A stretch of 64,000 nucleotides of DNA from Minisyncoccota bacterium (GCA_041662205.1 JBAZSZ010000001.1:81973-145972); one strand, 5' to 3'. Positions 11,290-56,248 are shown, counted from the stretch's first letter. The notes: a model not told the origin generated them from the letters alone. Numbers and translations are program-made.

Positions 11290-14200
11290 ATGGAAACTAG
11301 TTATAGTTATTTAAAAAACTTAGGAAAAATTTTTATAATTCTATCTGTTCTCATTTTTCCACTCGAAAATATTAGTAGTGTAGAAGCGGCCATACTAACA
11401 CCGGATGCCAGCGTGGTAGATGGTGTGGAAAATAAAAATGTAACTTCTATTTTAGATAAGAGAAAAAATCGGGTGACGCAAGAACAAAGACAAGCGGCAG
11501 CCGATGCTCAAAATACAGGCGTAAGCATTTCCAGTTCTTCCAAGGTTCTTGGTGGAATCATAGCTCCGATGATGACTATAACCGCTCCGCTCGTAGCTGC
11601 GGTGACTGTACCAGCGCCAGGGGGAACCCCAAATTATTTTGGTCCGGAACCTAACTGGGCTTATACTCCGCTTTTAAGAAAATTCGTTGATACCCTCCCT
11701 GGTCTTGGTTCAGCTAATACAAATAATTTAGGACAATATATTCCAATTGCTGCTGCGGATACTGCTACATATCCAGGATCAGATTATTATGAAATAGGAT
11801 TAGTGCAATACACGGAAAAAATGCATTCAGATTTACCGGTGACAACTTTGCGAGGATATGTTCAGCTAGAGACATCTGTTAACGCTTCTGCCAGCAAACA
11901 TATCGCTTTGAAATATCCTAATGGTAATCCGATTTTAAATTCTAGCGGAGCTCAAGTTTTTGGTTTTGACAATCCTCATTATCTTGGGCCTACAATTGTA
12001 GCTCAAAAAGATAAACCTACGCGCATTAAATTTACAAATTTTCTTCCTACTGGGACAGGAGGCAATCTTTTTATACCAGTTGATACTTCGGTGATGGGAG
12101 CTGGCATGGGTCCTTTAGATATGCCAGGAATGCCAGGAATGAAAGAAGATTATACTCAAAATAGAGCAACTCTCCATCTTCATGGAGGAAATACTCCGTG
12201 GATTTCCGATGGTACTCCGCATCAATGGACTACTCCAGCCGGAGAAAACACCCAATATCCAGAGGGGGTGAGTGTGTCTAATGTGCCAGATATGCCAGAC
12301 CCAGGAGTAGGATCTCTAACATTTTTTTATAGCAATCAGCAAAGCGCGCGTTTGATGTTTTATCATGACCATGCGTTTGGTATCACTCGACTTAATGTTT
12401 ATGCTGGTGAAGCGGCTGGATATTTATTAACAGATGCTACGGAACAAAATTTAATTTCAACTGGAGTAATACCATCTGATCAAATTCCTCTAATTATTCA
12501 GGATAAAACTTTTGTTGATGCCACAACAATTAGAGCAACCGATCCAACATGGAACTGGGGTCCAACTCCAGGTACACCTCATTCTGGTGATCTTTGGATT
12601 CCACATGTTTATATGCCTAATCAGAATCCTAATAGTAATAACGGTGTAAATCCTTTTGGACGTTGGGATTATGGTCCTTGGTTCTGGCCTCCTTGGCCGG
12701 CTGTGAATGCTCCAATTACGAAAGCAGATGGAACAGAAGTTCCCAATGTCCCAGATGTTTCGATGGGTATGGAAGCATTCAATGACACTCCACTTGTAAA
12801 TGGGACGGCTTATCCAAGTTTAACACTTCAACCGAAAGCTTATAGATTCCGTATTTTAAATGCTGCTAATGACAGATTTTGGAATTTACAACTCATTCAA
12901 GCAGACCCAACTGTTATTTCTTCAGATGGTCGCGCTAATACTGATGTAAAAGTGGTGCCATTTACGACCAGTACGACTTGGCCAGCTGGATATCCGACAC
13001 CAGATACTAGAGATGGGGGAGTGCCTGATCCGACGACTAGGGGTCCGGTCATGACTCAGATCGGTACAGAAGGCGGATTTCTACCAGCTCCTGTGACTCA
13101 CAATAATATTCCTATTGGATTTGATATGGATGGGAAAAGTATTACAGTGGGTAATGTCAAAGAACATAATTTACTATTAGGCCCAGCCGAAAGAGCAGAT
13201 GTCATAGTTGATTTTTCTGCTTACGCTGGAAAAACTTTGATTCTTTATAATGACGCTCCGGCTGCTTTTCCTGCTAGTGACCCGCGATTGGATTATTATA
13301 CTGGTAATCCTGATATGACAACCACTGGTGGAACGACTTCTACTTTGGCTGGTTTTGGACCAAATACTAGGACTATCATGCAAATCAAAATAGCTGCAGG
13401 TACTCCCATTCCTTTTAATCTAACTCCTTTAAATACCGCTTTACCAGCAGCATTCGCATCATCACAAGATCAAATCATAGTACCTCAGGAAGGATATAAT
13501 GCTGTATATAACGGAAATTTCCCAAATAATAGGAATGCTTATGCTAGAATTCAAGACACTTCATTAACTTTCACTCCGCTTGGCGGAACAACACCAGTAA
13601 CAATTCCTTTTGCGCCTAAAGCTATCGCTGAAGAATTCGAAAGTGTCTATGGGCGTATGAGCGGATTCCTAGGGCTCGAACTTCCATTTACTAATGGTGG
13701 AAATCAGACAACAATTTTTTACGATTATCAAGATCCGACTTCTGAAATTATAAATGATACTAATAATATATCAACGGCACAAATAGGAACACTTGGCGAT
13801 GGTACCCAGATATGGAAAATAACACATAACGGAGTAGATACTCATCCTATACATTTCCACTTATTTAATGTCCAGCTCGTAAATCGGGTGGATTGGGCTG
13901 GTGTAGTAAAACCACCAGAACCTAATGAGCTCGGCTGGAAAGAAACAGTGCGGATGAATCCCCTTGAAGACGCCATAGTTGCTCTAAGACCGGTTTCACC
14001 AAAACAACCTTTTGGAATACCAGAAAGTGTAAGACCGCTTGATCCAACAATGCCACTTGGAACAACTGCTCAGTTTAAAGGAGTAGACGCAAACGGCAAT
14101 CCGATAACAGTTACAAATGAGCTAGCGAACTTTGGGTGGGAATATGTTTGGCACTGCCATATTTTGAGCCATGAAGAAATGGATATGATGCGTCCGATTA

Positions 14201-16875: not shown

Positions 16876-19800
16876 ATGAAATACTTTAAATCAATAATCA
16901 AAGCGGGAATGTTCATAGCTGTGCTGACATTCTTTGTGGGAATAGGTGCTCAAGCAGCTTCTGCCGCCACCGTCACACGTAGCTTCTCCACTCTCACGCC
17001 AGCAGCAGGAACATCTTTAACAGTTTCTCTGGCTGTAGCAATGAATCCTGCAGACATTCTAACATTGATTGAAGAAACAGCTCCTGTGGGCTGGGTCATC
17101 ACAAATCCTGGAACAGGAACAGTAGGAGCAGACGGTATTTTGAGACTGAATGTAGCTGCAACCGGAACAGAGCAATATACAATCTCTGTACCAGCTTCAG
17201 CATCAGGAATAAATAATTTCTCAGGAGTATTTGCCACATTAGCAAACCCAGTATCCTCTCCAATAACAGGAAGCACATCGGTAACGGTAGCACCTGCTCC
17301 GGTAGTTGACATAACTCCACCTACAATCAACTTACTCGGAACTTCTCCAATAGATGTAACCCAAAACACAACCTACACTGATGCAGGAGCTACTGCTTCA
17401 GATAATGTTGACGGAAACATCACAGCCAACATTACAACAGTAAACCCTGTAAATACTGCAATTTTAGGAACATACACAGTCACTTACAATGTATCTGACG
17501 CAGCTGGAAATCCTGCAACTCAAGTAACAAGAACAGTTAATGTAGTAGCAGTAGTTGTTCCACCAGTAACCGCCACCGTCACACGTAGCTTCTCCACTCT
17601 CACGCCAGCAGCAGGAACATCTTTAACAGTTTCTCTGGCTGTAGCAATGAATCCTGCAGACATTCTAACATTGATTGAAGAAACAGCTCCTGTGGGCTGG
17701 GTCATCACAAATCCTGGAACAGGAACAGTAGGAGCAGACGGTATTTTGAGACTGAATGTAGCTGCAACCGGAACAGAGCAATATACAATCTCTGTACCAG
17801 CTTCAGCATCAGGAATAAATAATTTCTCAGGAGTATTTGCCACATTAGCAAACCCAGTATCCTCTCCAATAACAGGAAGCACATCGGTAACGGTAGCACC
17901 TGCTCCGGTAGTTCCAGTCCTCACCACCATCAACGTTACTTCCGTCACCCCATCCGTAGTAGTAGGCAATACTCAACAAATGACAGCAACTACTTTAGAT
18001 CAAAACGGAGCACCGATTGCAGCAACTGTAACTTGGTCTAGTTCAAATACAGCAGTTGGCACTATTGATGTTACTACCGGAATGTTTACCGCGGTTTCTG
18101 CTGGAACTACAACTGTAATGGCAATGAACGGAGCAGTTATGGGAACAACTTTGGTAACAGTAACCGCAACACCTGTAACGTTTACAATAAATGTAACTTC
18201 CGGAGCAAATGGTACCATTACACCAACAGGTACAGCAGGAGTAGTTACTTTAAATTCTGGAGCGAACCAAACATTTACCATCACACCAAATGCAGGATTT
18301 AATATTCAGGATGTTTTAGTTGATGGATCTTCAGTTGGAGCTGTTGCTACTTTCACATTTACAAACGTAACAGCTAACCATACTATTTCAGCTAGTTTCG
18401 CATCAATTCCGGTAGGTTCATTCACGATAACTTCTTCTGCAGGAATAAATGGTAACATAGCTCCTCTTGGCGCCCTAAGTTTTGCCGGAGGCACCAATGC
18501 AACATACACAATTTCTCCAAGTGCAGGTTTTCAAGTATTAGATGTTTTAGTTGATGGATTTTCAGTTGGAGCCGTCACTACTTTCACCTTCACAAATATC
18601 ACTGCTAACCATACAATCGCTGCCAGCTTTATTGCAACTCCAGTCCTCACAACTATCACCGTTACACCATCAGCACCATCAATACAGGCTGGAACTACCC
18701 AACAATTTACCGCAGTTGCTAAGGATCAAAATGGAATTGCCTTAGTCACTCAACCGGTTTTCACATGGACATCAGGAAATAATATAGTTACCACCATAGA
18801 TGCATCAGGCCTTGCTCAGGGCATCGTCGCAGGTGGACCAGTTCTCATTACTGCTACCTCTGGAGCAGTTTCTGGTACAGCTACCTTAACAGTTACAGCA
18901 GTTCCAGTTTTGACTTCGGTCACAGTAGCTCCACCTACACCATCAATTATAGTTGGAGCAACTCAGCAACTAACAGCAAATCCTTTAGATCAAAATGGAA
19001 TTGCCTTTAACGGTGCTGCAATAGCCTGGTCTTCAAGTGATTCTACAATTGCCACAGTTGATAATAACGGCTTAGTAACAGGTGTCGCAGTTGGAACAAC
19101 AACAATCACAGCAACAGCGACTTCAGGAGCTATTACTGTAACAGGAACCGCGACAATCACAATAACCGCTAATCCAGTAACTCCTGTCCTCACTACCATC
19201 AACGTTACTCCCGTCACCCCATCCGTAGTAGTAGGAAATACTCAACAAATGACAGCAACTACTTTAGATCAAAACGGAGCACCGATTGCAGCAACTGTAA
19301 CTTGGTCTAGTTCAAATACAGCAGTTGGCACTATTGATGTTACTACCGGAATGTTTACCGCGGTCGCAGTAGGCACTACCACAATTACTGCTACGAGTGG
19401 CGCGGTGACAGGAACAACTTTAGTAACAGTAACTCCTGCTCCTGTCCTCACTACCATCAACGTTACTCCCGTCACCCCATCCGTAGTAGTAGGCAATACT
19501 CAACAAATGACAGCAACTACTTTAGATCAAAACGGAGCACCGATTGCAGCAACTGTAACTTGGTCTAGTTCAAATACAGCAGTTGGCACTATTGATGTTA
19601 CTACCGGAATGTTTACCGCGGTCGCAGTAGGCACTACCACAATTACTGCTACGAGTGGCGCGGTGACAGGAACAACTTTGGTGACGGTGACAGCGGTGCC
19701 TCAATCTAGTGGAGGTGGTGGTAGTTTTATAAGACCCATTATTGTTGGTCAAGTATTAGGTGCTTTCACGGGACCAATTGCAGGATGTGGCAATAGAACA

Positions 19801-20175
19801 ACTGGATTTAGTGTAACTTCTGGTCAGTCTTGTGTTGGAAACACTGGATCAGAGGGTCAAATTCTCGGATGTGGCAATAGAACAACTGGATTTAGTATAA
19901 CTACTGGTCAATCTTGTATTGGAAATACTGGAGCAGATGAACAAGTGCTCGGTGCTGAAAAATTTATTTTCACACTATTCCTAAAGCAAGGTTCAAAAGG
20001 AGATGAAGTTATGGAGCTTCAGAAATTCTTAAACACTACTAAATATGGTCCATTAGTAATTGATGGAAAATTTGGGAAAAAGACTAAAGAAGCTGTTCTT
20101 AAATTCCAAATAGCAAACGGGCTAAAAGGGGATGGAATCGTAGGACCTCTAACCCGCGCAGTTCTCAATCAATAA
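16876..20175 (+). CDS. Cell-surface protein with a duplicated 114-aa domain, a HYR/DUF5011-like Ig domain, at least five Big2 repeats, a Cys repeat pair and a C-terminal peptidoglycan-binding domain
   Basis: A signal peptide is present. DITPPTINLLGTSPIDV...NVDGNITANITTV...TYNVSDAAGNP is the Ig-like domain. VGNTQQMTATTLDQNGAPIAATVTWSSSNTAVGTIDVTTGMFTAV recurs as the Big2 repeat. The C-terminus GSKGDEVMELQKFLN...IDGKFGKKTKEAVLKFQ is PG_binding_1-like. Confidence 0.7.
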   Translation: MKYFKSIIKAGMFIAVLTFFVGIGAQAASAATVTRSFSTLTPAAGTSLTVSLAVAMNPADILTLIEETAPVGWVITNPGTGTVGADGILRLNVAATGTEQYTISVPASASGINNFSGVFATLANPVSSPITGSTSVTVAPAPVVDITPPTINLLGTSPIDVTQNTTYTDAGATASDNVDGNITANITTVNPVNTAILGTYTVTYNVSDAAGNPATQVTRTVNVVAVVVPPVTATVTRSFSTLTPAAGTSLTVSLAVAMNPADILTLIEETAPVGWVITNPGTGTVGADGILRLNVAATGTEQYTISVPASASGINNFSGVFATLANPVSSPITGSTSVTVAPAPVVPVLTTINVTSVTPSVVVGNTQQMTATTLDQNGAPIAATVTWSSSNTAVGTIDVTTGMFTAVSAGTTTVMAMNGAVMGTTLVTVTATPVTFTINVTSGANGTITPTGTAGVVTLNSGANQTFTITPNAGFNIQDVLVDGSSVGAVATFTFTNVTANHTISASFASIPVGSFTITSSAGINGNIAPLGALSFAGGTNATYTISPSAGFQVLDVLVDGFSVGAVTTFTFTNITANHTIAASFIATPVLTTITVTPSAPSIQAGTTQQFTAVAKDQNGIALVTQPVFTWTSGNNIVTTIDASGLAQGIVAGGPVLITATSGAVSGTATLTVTAVPVLTSVTVAPPTPSIIVGATQQLTANPLDQNGIAFNGAAIAWSSSDSTIATVDNNGLVTGVAVGTTTITATATSGAITVTGTATITITANPVTPVLTTINVTPVTPSVVVGNTQQMTATTLDQNGAPIAATVTWSSSNTAVGTIDVTTGMFTAVAVGTTTITATSGAVTGTTLVTVTPAPVLTTINVTPVTPSVVVGNTQQMTATTLDQNGAPIAATVTWSSSNTAVGTIDVTTGMFTAVAVGTTTITATSGAVTGTTLVTVTAVPQSSGGGGSFIRPIIVGQVLGAFTGPIAGCGNRTTGFSVTSGQSCVGNTGSEGQILGCGNRTTGFSITTGQSCIGNTGADEQVLGAEKFIFTLFLKQGSKGDEVMELQKFLNTTKYGPLVIDGKFGKKTKEAVLKFQIANGLKGDGIVGPLTRAVLNQ
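16964..17913. repeat. Two apparently identical 344-bp direct repeats (16964-17307 and 17570-17913), 606 bp apart, inside the surface-protein gene
   Basis: Both copies start at ccgccaccgtcacacgtagcttctcc and end at cacctgctccggtagtt. The protein segments ATVTRSF...APAPVV are identical. The minus-strand ORFs 16950..17369 and 17520..17969 translate identically. Confidence 0.85.
19183..19698. repeat. Tandem near-identical 258-bp (86-aa Big2) repeats, with a more diverged copy at ~17914-18100
   Basis: cctgtcctcactaccatcaacgttactcccgtcaccccatccgtagtagtagg... recurs at 19183 and 19441. Confidence 0.8.
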
Positions 20176-20203
20176 GTAAATTATCAGCTTCTTTAAGCTA
20201 AAC

Positions 20204-20240
20204 AAAAAAACCGGATTAGTCCTCCGGTTTTTTTGTTTTT
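20204..20240 (+). terminator. Rho-independent terminator after the surface-protein gene
   Basis: The sequence is aaaaaaaccgga-ttagtcc-tccggttttttt. Confidence 0.6.
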
Positions 20241-20288
20241 TTCTTTGTTTTCTGCTAATATAAAAAAAGTTCTTTGAAGAAAATAAAT

Positions 20289-20602
20289 TCCGGGGTAGCT
20301 CAGCGGTAGAGCGGTCGCCTGTGTCAGCATTACGCAGCTTCCTAAGAAAACTTAGGTTGAAAAACAAGGTGAATTCGGGGAAGCCCTTATGGGGTAATCC
20401 CGAGCCAAGCCTCAATATAATATTGAGGAAGGTGTAGAGACTATCCATTTATTGGAGTACATCGGCAAATCGTCGGTGGAAGCGCCTTGCTCCTAAGTTC
20501 TTAAAATCATTTTAAGAATATGGAGATGATATAGTCCACACTTCTAGTAATAGGAGACAAAGTGTAAGCGATTGGTCGTAGGTTCGATCCCTACCCCCGG
20601 AG
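20289..20602 (+). tRNA. tRNA-Asn (anticodon GTT), interrupted. Exon 1 is 20289-20322 (positions 1-35), exon 2 is 20565-20602 (positions 36-73) and the intron is 20323-20564.
   Basis: The exons read TCCGGGGTAGCTCAGCGGTAGAGCGGTCGCCTGT|TAAGCGATTGGTCGTAGGTTCGATCCCTACCCCCGGAG. The acceptor is UCCGGGG/CCCCGGA with U1-A72 and G73. The anticodon loop CUGUUAA matches bacterial tRNA-Asn. Confidence 0.8.
20323..20564 (+). ncRNA. Group I self-splicing intron (242 nt) in the tRNA-Asn anticodon loop, between U35 and U36
   Basis: P1 forms between exon CUGU plus intron GU and the internal guide ACGCAG, placing a U:G wobble at the 5' splice site. The intron ends in G (omega G). The candidate P7 strands are AGACUA and UAGUC. 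Hairpins at cctaagAAAActtagg, cctcaataTAAtattgagg and ttcttaaaATCAttttaagaa fit P2, P6 and P9. Confidence 0.7.
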
Positions 20603-38015: not shown

Positions 38016-38606
38016 TTATTCTGCTTGTTTATAATTCCCTGGTAGTAAGTCTATTTTATTTAGTGGCAATAATCGTAAAAATGCTTTTCCTGTAAATAGT
38101 TCTCTTTTTACTGGTCCCCAAGCTCTCGAATCAGAGCTTGCGCTTCTATTGTCACCCATCACAAAATATTCATCACTTTTTAACACTATATGCTCTTCGT
38201 TGTTGGAAATATTTTTTACGAAAGGCTGATCCAATTTGAAAGATTCTGGATGTTCGTTATTTGTGATAGTTACATCATTTCCTTTTATGTCTACTGTTTC
38301 ATTTGGCAAACCTATGACTCTCTTAATAAAAAATTTTGTGGTGTCACCAGGATATCGAAAAACTACTACGTCATCTCTTTTTGGATTACTTAATTCATAA
38401 GATATTTTATCTATTATTAAATAATCTCCGTTTGTAAATGTCGGAATCATAGAACCTCCTGAGACTATAAATGGCTCAGCGACAAAAGCCCTAATGGGAA
38501 CGACTATAATTAATGCAATAAAGGCAAAACGTAAAAGCTCCTTAAACGATTGCCATTTAGTTTTTTTCTCCTCAGTTTCTTTTTGATCCATTATTTGTTC
38601 TTTCAT
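38016..38606 (-). CDS. lepB: Signal peptidase I
   Basis: GGSMIPTF (Ser box) and VMGDNRSASSDSRAWG are present. Confidence 0.85.
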   Translation of the reverse strand: MKEQIMDQKETEEKKTKWQSFKELLRFAFIALIIVVPIRAFVAEPFIVSGGSMIPTFTNGDYLIIDKISYELSNPKRDDVVVFRYPGDTTKFFIKRVIGLPNETVDIKGNDVTITNNEHPESFKLDQPFVKNISNNEEHIVLKSDEYFVMGDNRSASSDSRAWGPVKRELFTGKAFLRLLPLNKIDLLPGNYKQAE

Positions 38607-38669
38607 TGTTATAATATAACATAAAAAATCCTTGACATGTTGGTAAAATTTGTTGGGTAATATGTTTTT

Positions 38670-38715
38670 CCCCTACACCAGGAGAAGGGGAATTCCCCTT
38701 CTCCTGGTGTAGGGG
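38670..38715. repeat. 46-bp GC-rich perfect palindrome: cccctacaccaggagaaggggaa|ttccccttctcctggtgtagggg
   Basis: It lies in the divergent lepB/pth intergenic region. Both arms are perfect and the centre is GGGGAATTCCCC. A second element of related type lies at 53310-53355. Confidence 0.85.
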
Positions 38716-38727
38716 ATATGATATTAT

Positions 38728-39261
38728 GTGTTTATGAAATTAGTTGTTGGTTTAGGAAATCCAGGCAAAGAATATGAAAATACTAGGCACAATACTGGGC
38801 GCATTTTGATTAATCTTATTGAGAAAAAATTAACAGACAGTAAGATAAAATTTCTTACACCAGATACTTTTATGAATAATTCTGGAAAAGCTGTCGTTTC
38901 TTTGATAAAAAGTAAAAAAGATTTAAAAGACTTAGTAGTAATTTATGATGATATTGATTTACCACTTGGGAAAATTAAAATTTCTTTTAACCGTTCTTCT
39001 GGTGGACATAATGGTCTCGAATCTGTTATTAAGAAATTAAAATCACAAGAATTTATAAGAATCAGAGTTGGTATTTCGGGATCGACTCCAAAGGGTGTAG
39101 TAAAAAAACCAAAAGGAGAGAAGGCTGTTTTAAATTTTCTACTTGGTGAATTTAAAAAGCCAGAACTGGAAATAATCAAAAAGCTTTCCAAAAAAGTCGC
39201 CGAAGCAGTAGAAATGATTTTCACCGAAAGCAAAGAAAAAGCGATGTCAATTTATAATTAA
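38728..39261 (+). CDS. pth: Peptidyl-tRNA hydrolase
   Basis: LVVGLGNPGKEYENTRHNTG is present. Confidence 0.85.
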   Translation: MFMKLVVGLGNPGKEYENTRHNTGRILINLIEKKLTDSKIKFLTPDTFMNNSGKAVVSLIKSKKDLKDLVVIYDDIDLPLGKIKISFNRSSGGHNGLESVIKKLKSQEFIRIRVGISGSTPKGVVKKPKGEKAVLNFLLGEFKKPELEIIKKLSKKVAEAVEMIFTESKEKAMSIYN

Positions 39262-51478: not shown

Positions 51479-53308
51479 ATGGATTTAAAACACATTCGAA
51501 ATTTTAGTATCATCGCTCACATTGACCACGGCAAAAGTACTTTGGCTGATAGAATGTTGGAGATCACACATACGATAGAAACACGTAAAATGCGGGATCA
51601 GGTTTTAGATTCTATGGATCTTGAGCGTGAAAGAGGAATTACTATCAAAATGCAACCAGTTCGCATGGAGTATGAGCTGGAAGGTCAAAAATACATTTTA
51701 AACCTTATCGACACTCCAGGCCACATTGATTTTTCCTATGAAGTATCCCGAGCCTTGAAGGCTGTGGAGGGATCAATCTTGCTCGTCGACTCGACTCAAG
51801 GAGTACAAGCGCAAACACTCACCACGCTCGCTATGGCTCGCGACAGCGGACTCAAGCTTATCCCTGTACTTTCTAAAATTGATTCACCACTATCTAGAGT
51901 TTCCGAGGTGAAAGAGGAAGTAGTGGAGCTTTTGAATTGTGACCCAGATGAGATTTTATTAGTTTCCGGACGCACTGGTGCAGGAGTACCCGAGCTTTTA
52001 CAAGAAGTTATCAAGCGAATCCCAGAACCAAAAGAAACTATTCTGTTTGGACATCCGGACTCTGGACGCGGGGCATCTGAAATAGTTCGTGCATTAGTTT
52101 TTGATTTTAAATATTCAAATCATCGAGGGGTGATAGTTTTTGTGCGAATTTTTGATGGAAAAGTTGCAAAGGGTGACAGCCTAATGTTTGCAGTTTCCGG
52201 TGAGAAATTTACTGCTCTTGAAGTTGGAACTTTTTCTCCAGAGGAAACCTCTCGTGATTTTCTTTCTTCTGGAGATACGGGTTATATTGTTACTGGTATA
52301 AAGAAGCCCGGCATAGCCTCCGTTGGGGATACTATTACTATGTCTAAAAATCCTCTGTTGGCCTTCGAGGGCTATATGCAACCCTTACCTGTAGTGTGGG
52401 CGAGCGTTTTTCCAGAAGATGCAGATGATTTTGCGGAATTAAAACTTGCTTTAGGGAAATTAAAACTTTCTGATTCAGCATTTTCATATGAAGAAGAATC
52501 TTCTGGCTCTTTAGGCCGTGGATTTAGATGTGGTTTTTTAGGGATGCTCCATTTGGAAATAATTACTGAAAGACTCAAAAGAGAATTTAATTTAGAACTT
52601 GTCGTTACAACCCCATCTATTACTTATGAAGTAACTAATAAGCAAGGTAAAAAAGAAAAAATATATTCTCCTTATTTTTTTCCAGATGATGGAAATATTG
52701 AAGATGTGCAAGAGCCTTGGGTGGATATAAAAATAATTAGTCCTTCTCCATACATTGGAGCCATTATGCAACTTTTATTTGAGCACGAAGCAGAGGTAGG
52801 GGAGACGGATAATTTTGGAGATAATAGGTCGTCAATCAGTGTTAAAATGCCTTTGCGTGAACTGATGCGTAATTTTTTTGATGAATTGAAAAGTGCTTCC
52901 TCAGGTTATGCTTCAATTTCTTATAAATTAAATGAAAACAGGAGAGCTGATGTGACTAGATTAGATATTTTAGTAGCAGATGAAATAGTTCCGGCCTTTT
53001 CTAGGGTTGTTTCTAAAAAGAGGGCTGAGATTGAGGCGGAAAATGCAGTTTTGAAATTAGAAGAGTTGCTACCAAGACAGATGTTCACTTTGAAAATTCA
53101 AGGTAAGGCATTAGGGCGCATTATTTCTTCTCGCACACTTTCTGGTATGAAAAAAGATGTAACTCAACATATGTATGGAGGAGATATCACTCGAAAAATG
53201 AAACTTCGAGAAAAACAAAAGAAAGGTAAAAAGAAAATGAAGGAAAGAGGACGAGTAAATATTCCTCAGGATGTATTTTTGAAGATGATGCGATCCGGAG
53301 AAAAATAA
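51479..53308 (+). CDS. lepA: Translation elongation factor 4
   Basis: IRNFSIIAHIDHGKSTLADR is present. The length is 609 aa. Confidence 0.9.
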   Translation: MDLKHIRNFSIIAHIDHGKSTLADRMLEITHTIETRKMRDQVLDSMDLERERGITIKMQPVRMEYELEGQKYILNLIDTPGHIDFSYEVSRALKAVEGSILLVDSTQGVQAQTLTTLAMARDSGLKLIPVLSKIDSPLSRVSEVKEEVVELLNCDPDEILLVSGRTGAGVPELLQEVIKRIPEPKETILFGHPDSGRGASEIVRALVFDFKYSNHRGVIVFVRIFDGKVAKGDSLMFAVSGEKFTALEVGTFSPEETSRDFLSSGDTGYIVTGIKKPGIASVGDTITMSKNPLLAFEGYMQPLPVVWASVFPEDADDFAELKLALGKLKLSDSAFSYEEESSGSLGRGFRCGFLGMLHLEIITERLKREFNLELVVTTPSITYEVTNKQGKKEKIYSPYFFPDDGNIEDVQEPWVDIKIISPSPYIGAIMQLLFEHEAEVGETDNFGDNRSSISVKMPLRELMRNFFDELKSASSGYASISYKLNENRRADVTRLDILVADEIVPAFSRVVSKKRAEIEAENAVLKLEELLPRQMFTLKIQGKALGRIISSRTLSGMKKDVTQHMYGGDITRKMKLREKQKKGKKKMKERGRVNIPQDVFLKMMRSGEK

Positions 53309-53309
53309 A

Positions 53310-53355
53310 CCCCCACCCCAGGGATAGGGGAATTCCCCTATCCCTGGGGTGGGGG
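53310..53355. repeat. 46-bp GC-rich perfect palindrome: cccccaccccagggataggggaa|ttcccctatccctggggtggggg
   Basis: It lies immediately after the lepA stop. Eighteen of 23 positions per arm match the element at 38670, with matching changes in the opposite arm. Confidence 0.85.
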
Positions 53356-53489
53356 GAAGAATTTATCTAAAAATTGGCGAGTAGAGCAATATCATACTGA
53401 TTATAATGAGGATGCTCACGACTGCCCAAGCTATTTGTATTTTCTTTTGATGTTTTTTGTTGAAAAGCATATACTGAATATATCATATT

Positions 53490-53864
53490 ATGAGAAATTT
53501 TCAAGAAAAAAGAGGTTGGAGAAATATAGTCCAATCAAAACCGTTTTTGATACTTTTTGGTATTGTGATACTATTTTTTTCTTGGAATGTTTTTACTTTT
53601 TGGAATAAAATGCAAGAAACGGTAAAAAATAAAAAAATAGTTGAAGATAAAATTGCTTTATTAGAAAAACAAAAAGGAGAAATATCTTCTGAAATAAATA
53701 GTTTAAATACAATAGAAGGTAAAGAGAAGTTTTTTCGTGAAAATTTAGGTTTAGTAAAGGAAGGAGAAGGTGTGACCGTAGTAGTTGAAGATAAAAACCC
53801 ACCCATTACTTCAAAACCAATATCTTCAGGATTTTGGTCCTTTTTTACAAATTTGTTTAAATAA
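53490..53864 (+). CDS. FtsB/DivIC-like septum formation initiator
   Basis: A single N-terminal TM segment and a coiled coil are present. EKFFRENLGLVKEGEGVTVV is also present. Confidence 0.5.
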   Translation: MRNFQEKRGWRNIVQSKPFLILFGIVILFFSWNVFTFWNKMQETVKNKKIVEDKIALLEKQKGEISSEINSLNTIEGKEKFFRENLGLVKEGEGVTVVVEDKNPPITSKPISSGFWSFFTNLFK

Positions 53865-54898: not shown

Positions 54899-56248
54899 AT
54901 GACTAATCATTGGATTAAAAATTTTGATCAGTTAGCAATGACTGAAAATAGGAAAAATGCGCTAGAGATAATGGAAGCTGGTCTTGATGCTATCAATACA
55001 AGGAAAGTGATAAAAAACAAAATAAAACTTGAAAATAATATTTTAACTGTAAATGGTGAGAATTTTGATTTAAATAAATTCAAAAATATAAAAATTGTTG
55101 GTTTCGGTAAATCCTCTTGCGATGGGGCTCTGGCATTAGAAGAAATTTTAGGATCTAGGATAAAAGAAGGAGCAGTTATAGGGCTTTGCAAAGTGAACAC
55201 TCTGCATATCGAGACTTTTGTGGGGACACATCCTAGGCCGAGTGAGGTAAATGTTTCTGCTGGAAAAAAAATATATGAAATAATAAAAGATTCGAATGTT
55301 GATGATTTGATCATTGTCCTTGTTTCTGGCGGCGGTTCAGCTCTTCTTTGTTATCCTGAGAGTGAATATACAGAAGGGGCAAAGCTTTATGATTCATTTT
55401 TAGAATGCGGGAAAACAATAAAAGAGATGAACACAATCAGAAAGCATTTATCTCTTTTAAAGGGTGGTGGTTTAGCAAAGTTAGCTTATCCTGCGACAGT
55501 TATCGGTCTTATCTTTTCTGATGTTCCTGGGGATGATTTTAGTGATGTGGCTTCGGGGGCAACCTATAAAGATGAAACTACCATAGAGGATGTAAAAAAA
55601 ATTATTAACGAAAATAATTTAGGAGAATTTATTTTAATTGAAACTCCAAAAGAAGATAAATATTTTGAGAAAGTTCATAATTTTGTTTTAGTTTCAAATA
55701 AAACTGCCGTGGAAGCCATGGCTAAAGCTGCGCAAGAATTTAATTTTAAAACTAATATTATTTCAACTAATTTGTATGATGAAGATGAAAAAGCGATAAA
55801 AAAAATATTTTCCAATCAAGACAAAACCAATGAAGGGTTTTCTCAGGTCCTCGGTTTTCAGGGTCCCTATCCCGGCCAGACCATTCAAAAACCCTTCATT
55901 GGTTTTGTCCAACTTGCTGCTGGCGAGCCGAGTATCAAAATTTCTTCTTGTGGAGGCAAAGGAGGCAGGAATCTACATATGGGATTGGAAGTTATTAAAA
56001 TGAAAACGGTGAACGATGACTCTGTTTTTATCTCTTTTGCGAGTGATGGTATGGACAATAGCGATGTCGCTGGAGCCATAGTGGATGTAGAAACCATTAA
56101 AAAAGCTGAAAAGCTAGGTTTAAATGTTGATGATTATTTAAAAAGGTTTGATTCTTATGATTTTTTCCAAAAAACTGGTGATATGATTATTACTGGTCCG
56201 ACAGGGGCGAATGTTTCTGATTTAATGATTTTGTTAAATAAAAAATGA
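54899..56248 (+). CDS. Glycerate 2-kinase (MOFRL family)
   Basis: DDLIIVLVSGGGSALL is present, with a C-terminal MOFRL-like region. Confidence 0.7.
   Translation: MTNHWIKNFDQLAMTENRKNALEIMEAGLDAINTRKVIKNKIKLENNILTVNGENFDLNKFKNIKIVGFGKSSCDGALALEEILGSRIKEGAVIGLCKVNTLHIETFVGTHPRPSEVNVSAGKKIYEIIKDSNVDDLIIVLVSGGGSALLCYPESEYTEGAKLYDSFLECGKTIKEMNTIRKHLSLLKGGGLAKLAYPATVIGLIFSDVPGDDFSDVASGATYKDETTIEDVKKIINENNLGEFILIETPKEDKYFEKVHNFVLVSNKTAVEAMAKAAQEFNFKTNIISTNLYDEDEKAIKKIFSNQDKTNEGFSQVLGFQGPYPGQTIQKPFIGFVQLAAGEPSIKISSCGGKGGRNLHMGLEVIKMKTVNDDSVFISFASDGMDNSDVAGAIVDVETIKKAEKLGLNVDDYLKRFDSYDFFQKTGDMIITGPTGANVSDLMILLNKK

Follow-up and report, generated by a model that had tools for sequence, protein, structure and literature searches.

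Yeast mitochondrial DNA carries GC clusters, which are GC-rich hairpin repeats of that organelle. Repetitive hairpin-forming elements have likewise been described in sponge mitochondria (PMC2800124). In bacteria, REP elements are short GC-rich hairpin repeats that lie mostly a few nucleotides downstream of ORFs, are co-transcribed, have no target-site duplication (TSD) and are occasionally intragenic; they measure 20-40 bp, are imperfect, carry an unpaired tag, GTAG or CGTC, at one end and reach tens to hundreds of copies (PMC3733652). The Rickettsia palindromic elements (RPEs) insert in frame into protein genes (Ogata et al. 2000, 2002, as summarised in PMC10969869), and bacterial MITEs (Correia/NEMIS, ERIC, SPRITE) are able to occupy operons and to form in-frame fusions with ORFs (PMC10969869). 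Here we set beside these systems a family of perfect palindromes, two copies of which lie in a 64,000-nucleotide stretch of DNA from a Minisyncoccota bacterium; this whole stretch is referred to as the window.

Two palindromes in the window

The palindromes and the genes around them are the following:

53310..53355, no strand: palindrome, first copy, 46 bp, a 21-bp stem with an AATT loop
38670..38715, no strand: palindrome, second copy, with five mirrored differences from the 53310 copy
51479..53308, plus strand: lepA (elongation factor 4), which ends 1 nt before the 53310 palindrome
53363..53470, minus strand: mini-ORF for a 35-residue membrane peptide, MLFNKKHQKKIQIAWAVVSILIIISMILLYSPIFR, convergent with lepA (from the ORF call and its conservation)
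53490..53864, plus strand: divIC/ftsB-like gene, downstream of the spacer; orthologue annotated as DivIC (PF04977)
38016..38606, minus strand: lepB (signal peptidase I), divergent from pth; orthologues annotated as Peptidase_S26
38734..39261, plus strand: pth (peptidyl-tRNA hydrolase), its ATG at 38734, 18 nt downstream of the 38670 copy

Read directly from the window, the sequence at 53310-53355 is cccccaccccagggataggggaattcccctatccctggggtggggg. It begins one base past the lepA stop codon (TAA, 53306-53308), and both it and the copy at 38670-38715 are 100% self-complementary; with its flanks, the latter forms a 25-pair palindrome at 38667-38718. The two copies differ at 5 of the 23 arm positions, namely 5 (t/c), 8 (a/c), 14 (a/g), 15 (g/a) and 16 (a/t), and all five differences are mirrored in the opposite arm. 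They share the core GGGGAATTCCCC, which occurs in the window at exactly these two places against a chance expectation of 0.14. The first-pass annotation had reported a 46-bp palindrome just past the lepA stop, five mirrored changes that leave both copies perfect and an identical core, and in each of these points it is exact. The window contains no other long perfect GC-rich palindromes, and the chance of a perfect 46-bp palindrome in 64 kb at 36% GC is about 5e-9 (calculated as 0.27^23 x 64000). The surrounding DNA has a GC content of 32-38%. As RNA, the 53310 copy folds at -52.5 kcal/mol (z -6.9) and the 38670 copy at -50.1 kcal/mol (z -9.5); the DNA folds are about -28 to -29 kcal/mol (-29 for the 53310 copy).

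The LepA protein of the window is a 100% match to a protein of a Candidatus Paceibacterota (CPR/Patescibacteria) MAG. Between lepA and the mini-ORF, the 53310 palindrome fills a convergent spacer of 54 nt and sits 7 nt past the mini-ORF stop. The mini-ORF is unannotated and has no NCBIfam family match, and it is conserved in six genomes with conservative substitutions; its product has a basic N-terminus and a single hydrophobic helix. No gene ends at the 38670 copy, which occupies the spacer between the divergent starts of lepB and pth, 63 nt from the former (38606). In several database entries for Pth (P0129, P0196, P0147 and others; L010 2637-3236), gene callers have extended the gene upstream through the palindrome, and these false N-terminal extensions contain read-through peptides such as ...TPPTPGIGDFPYPWGGG... 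Such palindromes can thus mislead gene callers, and they can be mistaken for terminators or sRNAs.

Anatomy, distribution and turnover of the family

For the census we used the pattern CCCC-N12-AGGGGAATTCCCCT-N12-GGGG, in which the middle 12 positions of each arm are unconstrained. Among 185,579 species genomes (GTDB) it found 16 loci, all in Patescibacteria/Paceibacteria-type MAGs and one to three per genome. A metagenome scan that allowed any A/T tetraloop yielded 33 loci, 27 of them family members, of CPR/Paceibacteria type. Deduplication left 33 contexts (34 with L061) with 28 different stems, and the claim that the window copies belong to one palindrome family is borne out by these 34 contexts across Patescibacteria/Paceibacteria assemblies. 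The only matches among IMG/VR viral contigs were two false positives from tandem repeats in giant-virus bins, which gives no evidence of a phage carrier. A covariance-model (R1) search of 166 kb of relatives, picked independently of the palindrome, returned no further copies. The family is thus a set of sparse, Paceibacteria-lineage-specific dispersed hairpin repeats, with at most three strict copies per GTDB genome and two in the 64-kb window. Our literature searches found no description of the motif or of palindromic repeats in CPR bacteria.

The element reads TT-CCCC-N12-AGGGG-loop-CCCCT-N12'-GGGG-AA, a GC-rich hairpin of about 50 bp with an A/T loop of 3-4 nt. Family copies are perfect in the free arm positions, except for one copy with one mismatch; six kinds of unrelated match to the same pattern have 4-11 arm mismatches and serve as an internal negative control. 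Since the strict pattern misses copies that have decayed in its 22 fixed positions, perfection is a property of intact copies only. The loop is AATT in 26 copies, AAAT in three, and ATTT, ATAT, AAAA or TTAA in one each, and the centre is GAATTC in 26 of the 33; the covariance model added variants with loops of TTT, AAT or AAATT, all with perfect stems. The centre of the element is therefore a loop and not a paired dyad, and since the loop may be non-palindromic, the element is a hairpin rather than a two-half-site protein operator, as had been supposed when a single protein-binding site was set aside on first reading. T residues at flank positions -1 (49/66) and -2 (43/66) extend the stem, and the flanks of the family are T-rich 5' and A-rich 3' on both strands, the reverse of an intrinsic terminator. 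Three arm positions are conserved although the search left them free (G12, 97%; A6, 88%; C10, 79%), which argues that the copies are homologous and not convergent.

The family spans roughly 28 distinct sites, of which a single one, that 3' of lepA, is convergent. Divergent spacers, among them lepB|pth, account for at least six sites, with copies in window 38670, L010, L061, L008, L014, L015, L017 and L052, and many copies lie in co-directional spacers, 1-20 nt from a stop or start codon. Five genomes (L011, L040, L046, L016b and L032) have a copy between rplN and rplX, rplF|rplR is also occupied, and the 3' end of folD is overlapped by a copy in L009 and L036. At eight coding sites, in putative surface loops or linkers of housekeeping proteins, the palindrome is read in frame over 16 codons; the host proteins are LepA (L003, L013), RsmH, CarA (in the interdomain linker), PepA, TsaD, two Mur ligases and a DUF4430 protein (Pfam-confirmed), and the inserted peptides read SPxxxxGEFPxxxxRG or FPKxxLRGIPLxxxLG. 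Several copies thus lie a few nucleotides past stop codons, and others in divergent spacers, in r-protein operons or in frame within coding sequences. A Shine-Dalgarno role of the GGGGA end was considered and rejected, the distance to the next start varying from about 10 to about 30 nt (by eye, on ORF maps).

Both window sites are polymorphic among relatives that keep the same gene order, and the closest relative (LepA 94%) is without either copy. At the 3' end of lepA, the window and L041/L018 carry an identical 46-mer at the orthologous position; the site is empty in L054 (LepA 89%), where the stop codons lie 1 nt apart, and in L058, and it is occupied in L001, L055 and L057 by an unrelated structured element of 110-140 nt. 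Since lepA of the window is 86% identical in DNA to that of L001 and 76% to that of L041, the palindrome is common to the farther genome and absent from the closer one. At lepB|pth, the window, L010 and L061 carry a palindrome, and L059, which comes from the sample that gave L001, and L060 carry none; in these two a promoter-like TTGACA-18-TATAAT directly abuts the pth ATG. In L062 the flanks are kept around a 17-nt AT-rich remnant, and decayed copies are also found in TsaD (P0252 and P0285). Stems recur across sites as well. The L061 copy at pth bears the stem of the window 53310 copy, the 46-mer of the window 38670 copy recurs identically at an unrelated site in L053, L005 and L017 are identical copies at two sites of one genome, and copies within a genome are more alike than orthologous copies elsewhere (L016a/b, L009a/b).

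The dispersal to unrelated sites, the site polymorphism and the in-frame insertions together indicate an insertion element and not a terminator or operator. The suggestion of a structured mobile or repeat element, made from the two window copies, fits the gain and loss of sites and the identical copies at unrelated places. We consider it probable, with moderate confidence, that the palindrome is a low-copy non-autonomous insertion element akin to REP or RPE elements, in which hairpin-templated correction or selection keeps the two arms identical. Such a family would be mobilised in trans, and the 53310 copy would represent an insertion into the lepA/mini-ORF convergent spacer, which is 1 nt long in relatives; terminator activity of this copy, for the minus-strand mini-gene only, would plausibly be secondary or incidental. 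The low copy number (at most three strict copies per genome) is unusual for a selfish repeat and counts against this reading.

With respect to mechanism, the mean longest direct repeat in the 16-nt flanks was 3.82, against 3.88 +/- 0.17 in shuffled pairings. With this negative TSD test, we make no claim for the duplications seen by eye (the -10 box at pth and GAARAAT at lepA), and a single-strand or hairpin-recognising mechanism becomes likelier than DDE-type cut-and-paste; a mechanism specific for hairpins or single strands, of the REP/RAYT or IS200 type, is put forward as a lead. Within about 190 kb of annotated relative loci there was no transposase Pfam domain, and no parent IS with matching ends was seen in the loci examined. 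One of these loci (L037 5412-5503) holds a 92-nt element with similar TTCCCC ends and no ORF.

If the palindrome is indeed an insertion element, streamlined CPR genomes are not free of selfish DNA but carry minimal hairpin elements. These would remodel intergenic regulation, as at pth, where the insertion separates the promoter from a formerly leaderless start, and would add loops of 16-25 residues to essential proteins.

A solitary right arm in L014 (1162-1194, TTTTTCCCCTAGGTCGGGACAAGGGGAAAAAA) matches one arm of a full element 2.9 kb away on the same contig at 21/21 nt, and may be either the product of a one-arm deletion or a progenitor unit. We considered a 25-nt unit, TTCCCC-N13-GGGGAA, as the basic mobile module, the N13 spacing giving eight matches against 0-2 for other spacings, and rejected it: only the L014 arm is a true solo, the other N13 matches being L043's own arms or a different mini-hairpin, and slippage deletion of one arm explains the solo equally well.

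Hairpin insertions appear to be general in the coding loops of these genomes. Within lepA of the window, a decayed hairpin insertion at about 52040-52090 encodes KETILFGHPDSGRGASEIV, and the orthologous insert in L001 retains a 16-bp perfect stem. The loop concerned (RVPEP...LVFDF, in 120 homologues) has 12 residues in most LepA proteins and 18-25 in about 25, and the long versions are encoded by several distinct palindromes. At 55820-55909, a 22-bp perfect inverted repeat around 46 nt forms a 25-residue in-frame insert in a glycerate-kinase-like ORF (54899-56248; DUF4147/MOFRL); it is present with one arm mismatch in L001 and absent from the L055, L057 and L058 orthologues, and represents a hairpin-insertion family other than that of the 46-bp palindromes. 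The TsaD loop bounded by GGPxI and PRPM (P0241-P0360; L063 ~2150-2270) has 12-13 residues in a few proteins and 25-76 in most, with inserts of at least six recurrent peptide families, some in tandem, the commonest of which is encoded by a GC-rich hairpin of -48.5 kcal/mol. The peptide KPARPHD occurs in two unrelated proteins, RsmH of L012 (residues ~248-262, where it continues as KPARPHDSLGAGGGG) and the L021 ORF 2-517, which suggests another putative GC-rich in-frame insertion family.

Repeated independent insertions at the same loops of LepA, TsaD and the glycerate-kinase-like protein point to a broader scheme, which we advance tentatively: Paceibacteria, and perhaps the wider CPR, may harbor several tiny hairpin families that insert without TSD in spacers and, in frame, in surface loops of essential proteins, on an RPE-like scale or more, with arm regeneration keeping freely evolving stems paired. 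Were this scheme true, mobile DNA would be maintained in a way not described before, and ultra-small genomes would have a source of new protein loops.

Three further observations concern the window and its relatives. The structured element in the lepA/mini-ORF spacer of L001 (11836-11990), L055 (~11805-11915) and L057 (~11830-11950) has a conserved core, GGTACAGATTTTTTGAAGCTTAAAAAATCCTGAAG...CAAAACCCCC, with outer stems that differ completely between genomes, and has no Rfam match. Directly upstream of the divIC ATG, L001 has a 46-nt insertion (12113-12158) with a 7-bp GC stem (ATGACCC...GGGTCAT), absent from L002, which encodes the same LepA protein, and from the window. The window also contains an Rfam group I intron match of 67 bits, above the gathering score (20252-20557), which lies not in an rRNA or tRNA gene but in the spacer past a 1099-residue repeat-rich surface-protein ORF (16876-20175) and is preceded by a perfect A/T-flanked hairpin (20200-20238).

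Mirrored arms and the alternative readings

In the family alignment (A1), 14 of the 23 pairs change on both sides, and the double-change cells number 146, against 33 +/- 5 in shuffled alignments, none of the 500 shuffles reaching the observed value. When the partner is shifted by 1-3 columns, pairing falls from 97.6% to 44-59%. Among the 396 cells of the 12 variable pairs there is one non-pair and no G-U, the lone non-Watson-Crick cell (L043) reading as G-U on the sense strand. Between the orthologous copies within lepA in L003 and L013, two mirrored changes are found, although each arm is coding and a change in either alters the protein. In L001, L055 and L057, the unrelated spacer element has outer stems that are genome-specific yet complementary within each genome.

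From the covariation of the two window copies, the first-pass annotation had argued for selection on a hairpin or cruciform; the pairing-preserving covariation and the hairpin stand, but selection is not the sole, and perhaps not the best, explanation. A mismatch barely weakens a stem of -50 kcal/mol and selection on RNA tolerates G-U, and neither mismatches beyond the single one nor G-U pairs are seen, so that the symmetry needs an explanation of its own and templating is at least as likely as selection. Quasipalindrome template-switch mutagenesis turns imperfect inverted repeats into perfect ones (Ripley 1982; Lovett lab; PMC7202029), and intrastrand template switching is a documented process, known from E. 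coli, yeast and T4 (PMC7202029). In the family described here, one arm would template the other, either by intrastrand template switching or by hairpin mismatch correction during propagation. We infer that the mirrored changes most likely arise mainly from such templating, copy-by-copy selection for stability being less likely. The conserved GGGG-loop-CCCC and the terminal CCCC/GGGG would be the likeliest parts recognised by a factor that propagates or tolerates the element. In either case, the mirrored evolution of the arms is a natural data set with which selection on structure can be told apart from hairpin-templated mutation.

Conservation relative to the surrounding DNA bears on whether the hairpins serve the host. 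The palindrome of the window and that of L041 are identical at 46/46 positions while lepA is 76% identical, the copies within lepA of L003 and L013 agree at 42/46 positions while lepA is 71% identical, and the element remains GC-rich in AT-rich genomes. Judged from these sequence comparisons, the conservation and the GC-richness may suggest purifying selection, and hence a host function, or recent horizontal spread.

The strongest alternative to an insertion element is that the hairpins are host-functional RNA elements, either processing sites or exonuclease stabilisers in mRNAs, which selection keeps perfect and GC-rich. A perfect stem of 21-25 bp is of RNase III size. Of the intergenic copies, most belong to transcription units and sit 1-20 nt from a stop or start codon; this position, the occupation of rplN|rplX in five genomes, the higher conservation of some orthologous copies than of adjacent coding DNA, the sense-strand G-U of L043 and the AAAU that four of five asymmetric loops read in the sense direction all agree with this proposal. 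Orientation of the loop is not fixed, however, since L009b reads AUUU and L036 AAAU at the same site. About 30% of the sites are in-frame insertions in essential genes, which is unexpected for processing signals, and close relatives that share the gene order lack the palindrome at both window sites. Selection at the RNA level would tolerate G-U, yet L043 has the only one in 396 variable cells, and a single mismatch would hardly weaken a stem of -50 kcal/mol. In addition, no Rfam family matches the palindrome at gathering level, the matches at E<=1 being sub-threshold generic hairpins (miRNA-type). We regard a host RNA function as unlikely, with some evidence in its favor.

A class of intrinsic, possibly bidirectional, transcription terminators is improbable. 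In favor of the proposal, the 53310 copy lies between convergent genes and its minus strand continues from the hairpin into TTTATTTTTC, the only strand that a terminator scan scores as terminator-like; several other copies also lie a few nucleotides past stop codons, and the GC-rich stem-loop itself (21 bp, -50 to -52 kcal/mol, z -7 to -10) is of the kind found in terminators. The plus strand of the 53310 copy has no T-run 3' of the hairpin, however, and throughout the family the TT...AA flanks, T-rich 5' and A-rich 3' on both strands, leave no U-tract 3' of the hairpin on either strand, TTTATTTTTC being the exception. Nor do the copies mark the ends of transcription units: some are found in spacers with divergent promoters, others between r-protein genes that are transcribed together or within ORFs, with one convergent site among about 28, and the lepA/mini-ORF spacer is without any hairpin in L054 and L058. 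The terminator class named in the first-pass annotation is thus not upheld.

Less credible still is a duplex DNA site for a dimeric regulator or a restriction-modification protein. Conservation of GGGG-loop-CCCC and of the terminal CCCC/GGGG, the 97% conserved G at arm position 12, which the search left free, and the GAATTC contained in GGGGAATTCCCC and central in 26/33 copies, with arms often bearing CCWGG, might be read as such a site. The centre, however, can be non-palindromic or 3 nt long (AAAT, AAAA, TTT, AAT), which breaks a dyad but not a hairpin, and the half-site contains 12 freely varying stem positions, at which no protein can explain perfect complementarity; the locations, some of them inside ORFs, form no regulon-like pattern. 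Finally, although inverted chimeric reads can create perfect palindromes, we give practically no credence to an assembly or library artefact such as a fold-back chimera, because more than 40 independent assemblies from differing projects and assemblers show the same architecture mid-contig, at orthologous positions that are conserved and in frame inside genes that are intact.

Comparison with known repeat systems

TIGR arrays, CRISPR repeats and integron attC sites were considered and rejected as relatives of the palindrome, since its copies are solitary and have no bulges or extrahelical bases, no cassettes and no cas or tas genes. Quasipalindrome mutagenesis resembles what is seen in the arms in that it predicts mirrored changes, no G-T intermediates and independence of function. 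It is, however, a mutational process and not an element family, and it accounts for the symmetry but not for the dispersal or the conserved GGGG-loop-CCCC.

With bacterial MITEs, the family shares the format of a short non-autonomous element with two inverted arms, its perfect arms being terminal inverted repeats. MITEs, however, are flanked by TSDs, have a parent IS whose TIRs match and usually exceed 100 bp, whereas the palindromes show no target-site duplication and have arms separated by the loop only. The mitochondrial hairpin repeats are similar in being GC-rich hairpins in AT-rich compact genomes, patchy among relatives and prone to re-invade the same spacers; unlike those organellar, mostly intergenic and multi-copy elements, the palindrome family is bacterial, low in copy number and often coding.

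The REP/REPIN elements are comparable in their GC-rich hairpin, in a position that is mostly just downstream of ORFs, within the transcript, in the absence of TSDs and in a family consensus with variable stem positions. The palindromes differ from them in their length of 46-50 bp, their perfect pairing and the many copies in coding sequence, and no RAYT is listed among the annotated relative loci. The REP tag is likewise lacking: the flank columns of A1 are unconserved beyond TT/AA, and GTAG is found only in the stem, in about half of the copies. Their number, with one to three strict copies per GTDB genome, two in the 64-kb window and none added in 166 kb of relatives, also falls below that of REPs. 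The RPEs are similar in that they are palindromic, inhabit a reduced AT-rich genome and are inserted in frame in unrelated housekeeping genes with a family-specific peptide. Size and lineage set the two apart, RPEs being imperfect elements of about 100-150 bp in alphaproteobacteria and the palindromes being perfect, 46-50 bp long and of CPR origin. The family described here therefore consists of short hairpin-forming dispersed repeats that work like REPs, RPEs and mitochondrial repeats, yet differ from each of them in one or more of the features by which membership is recognised.
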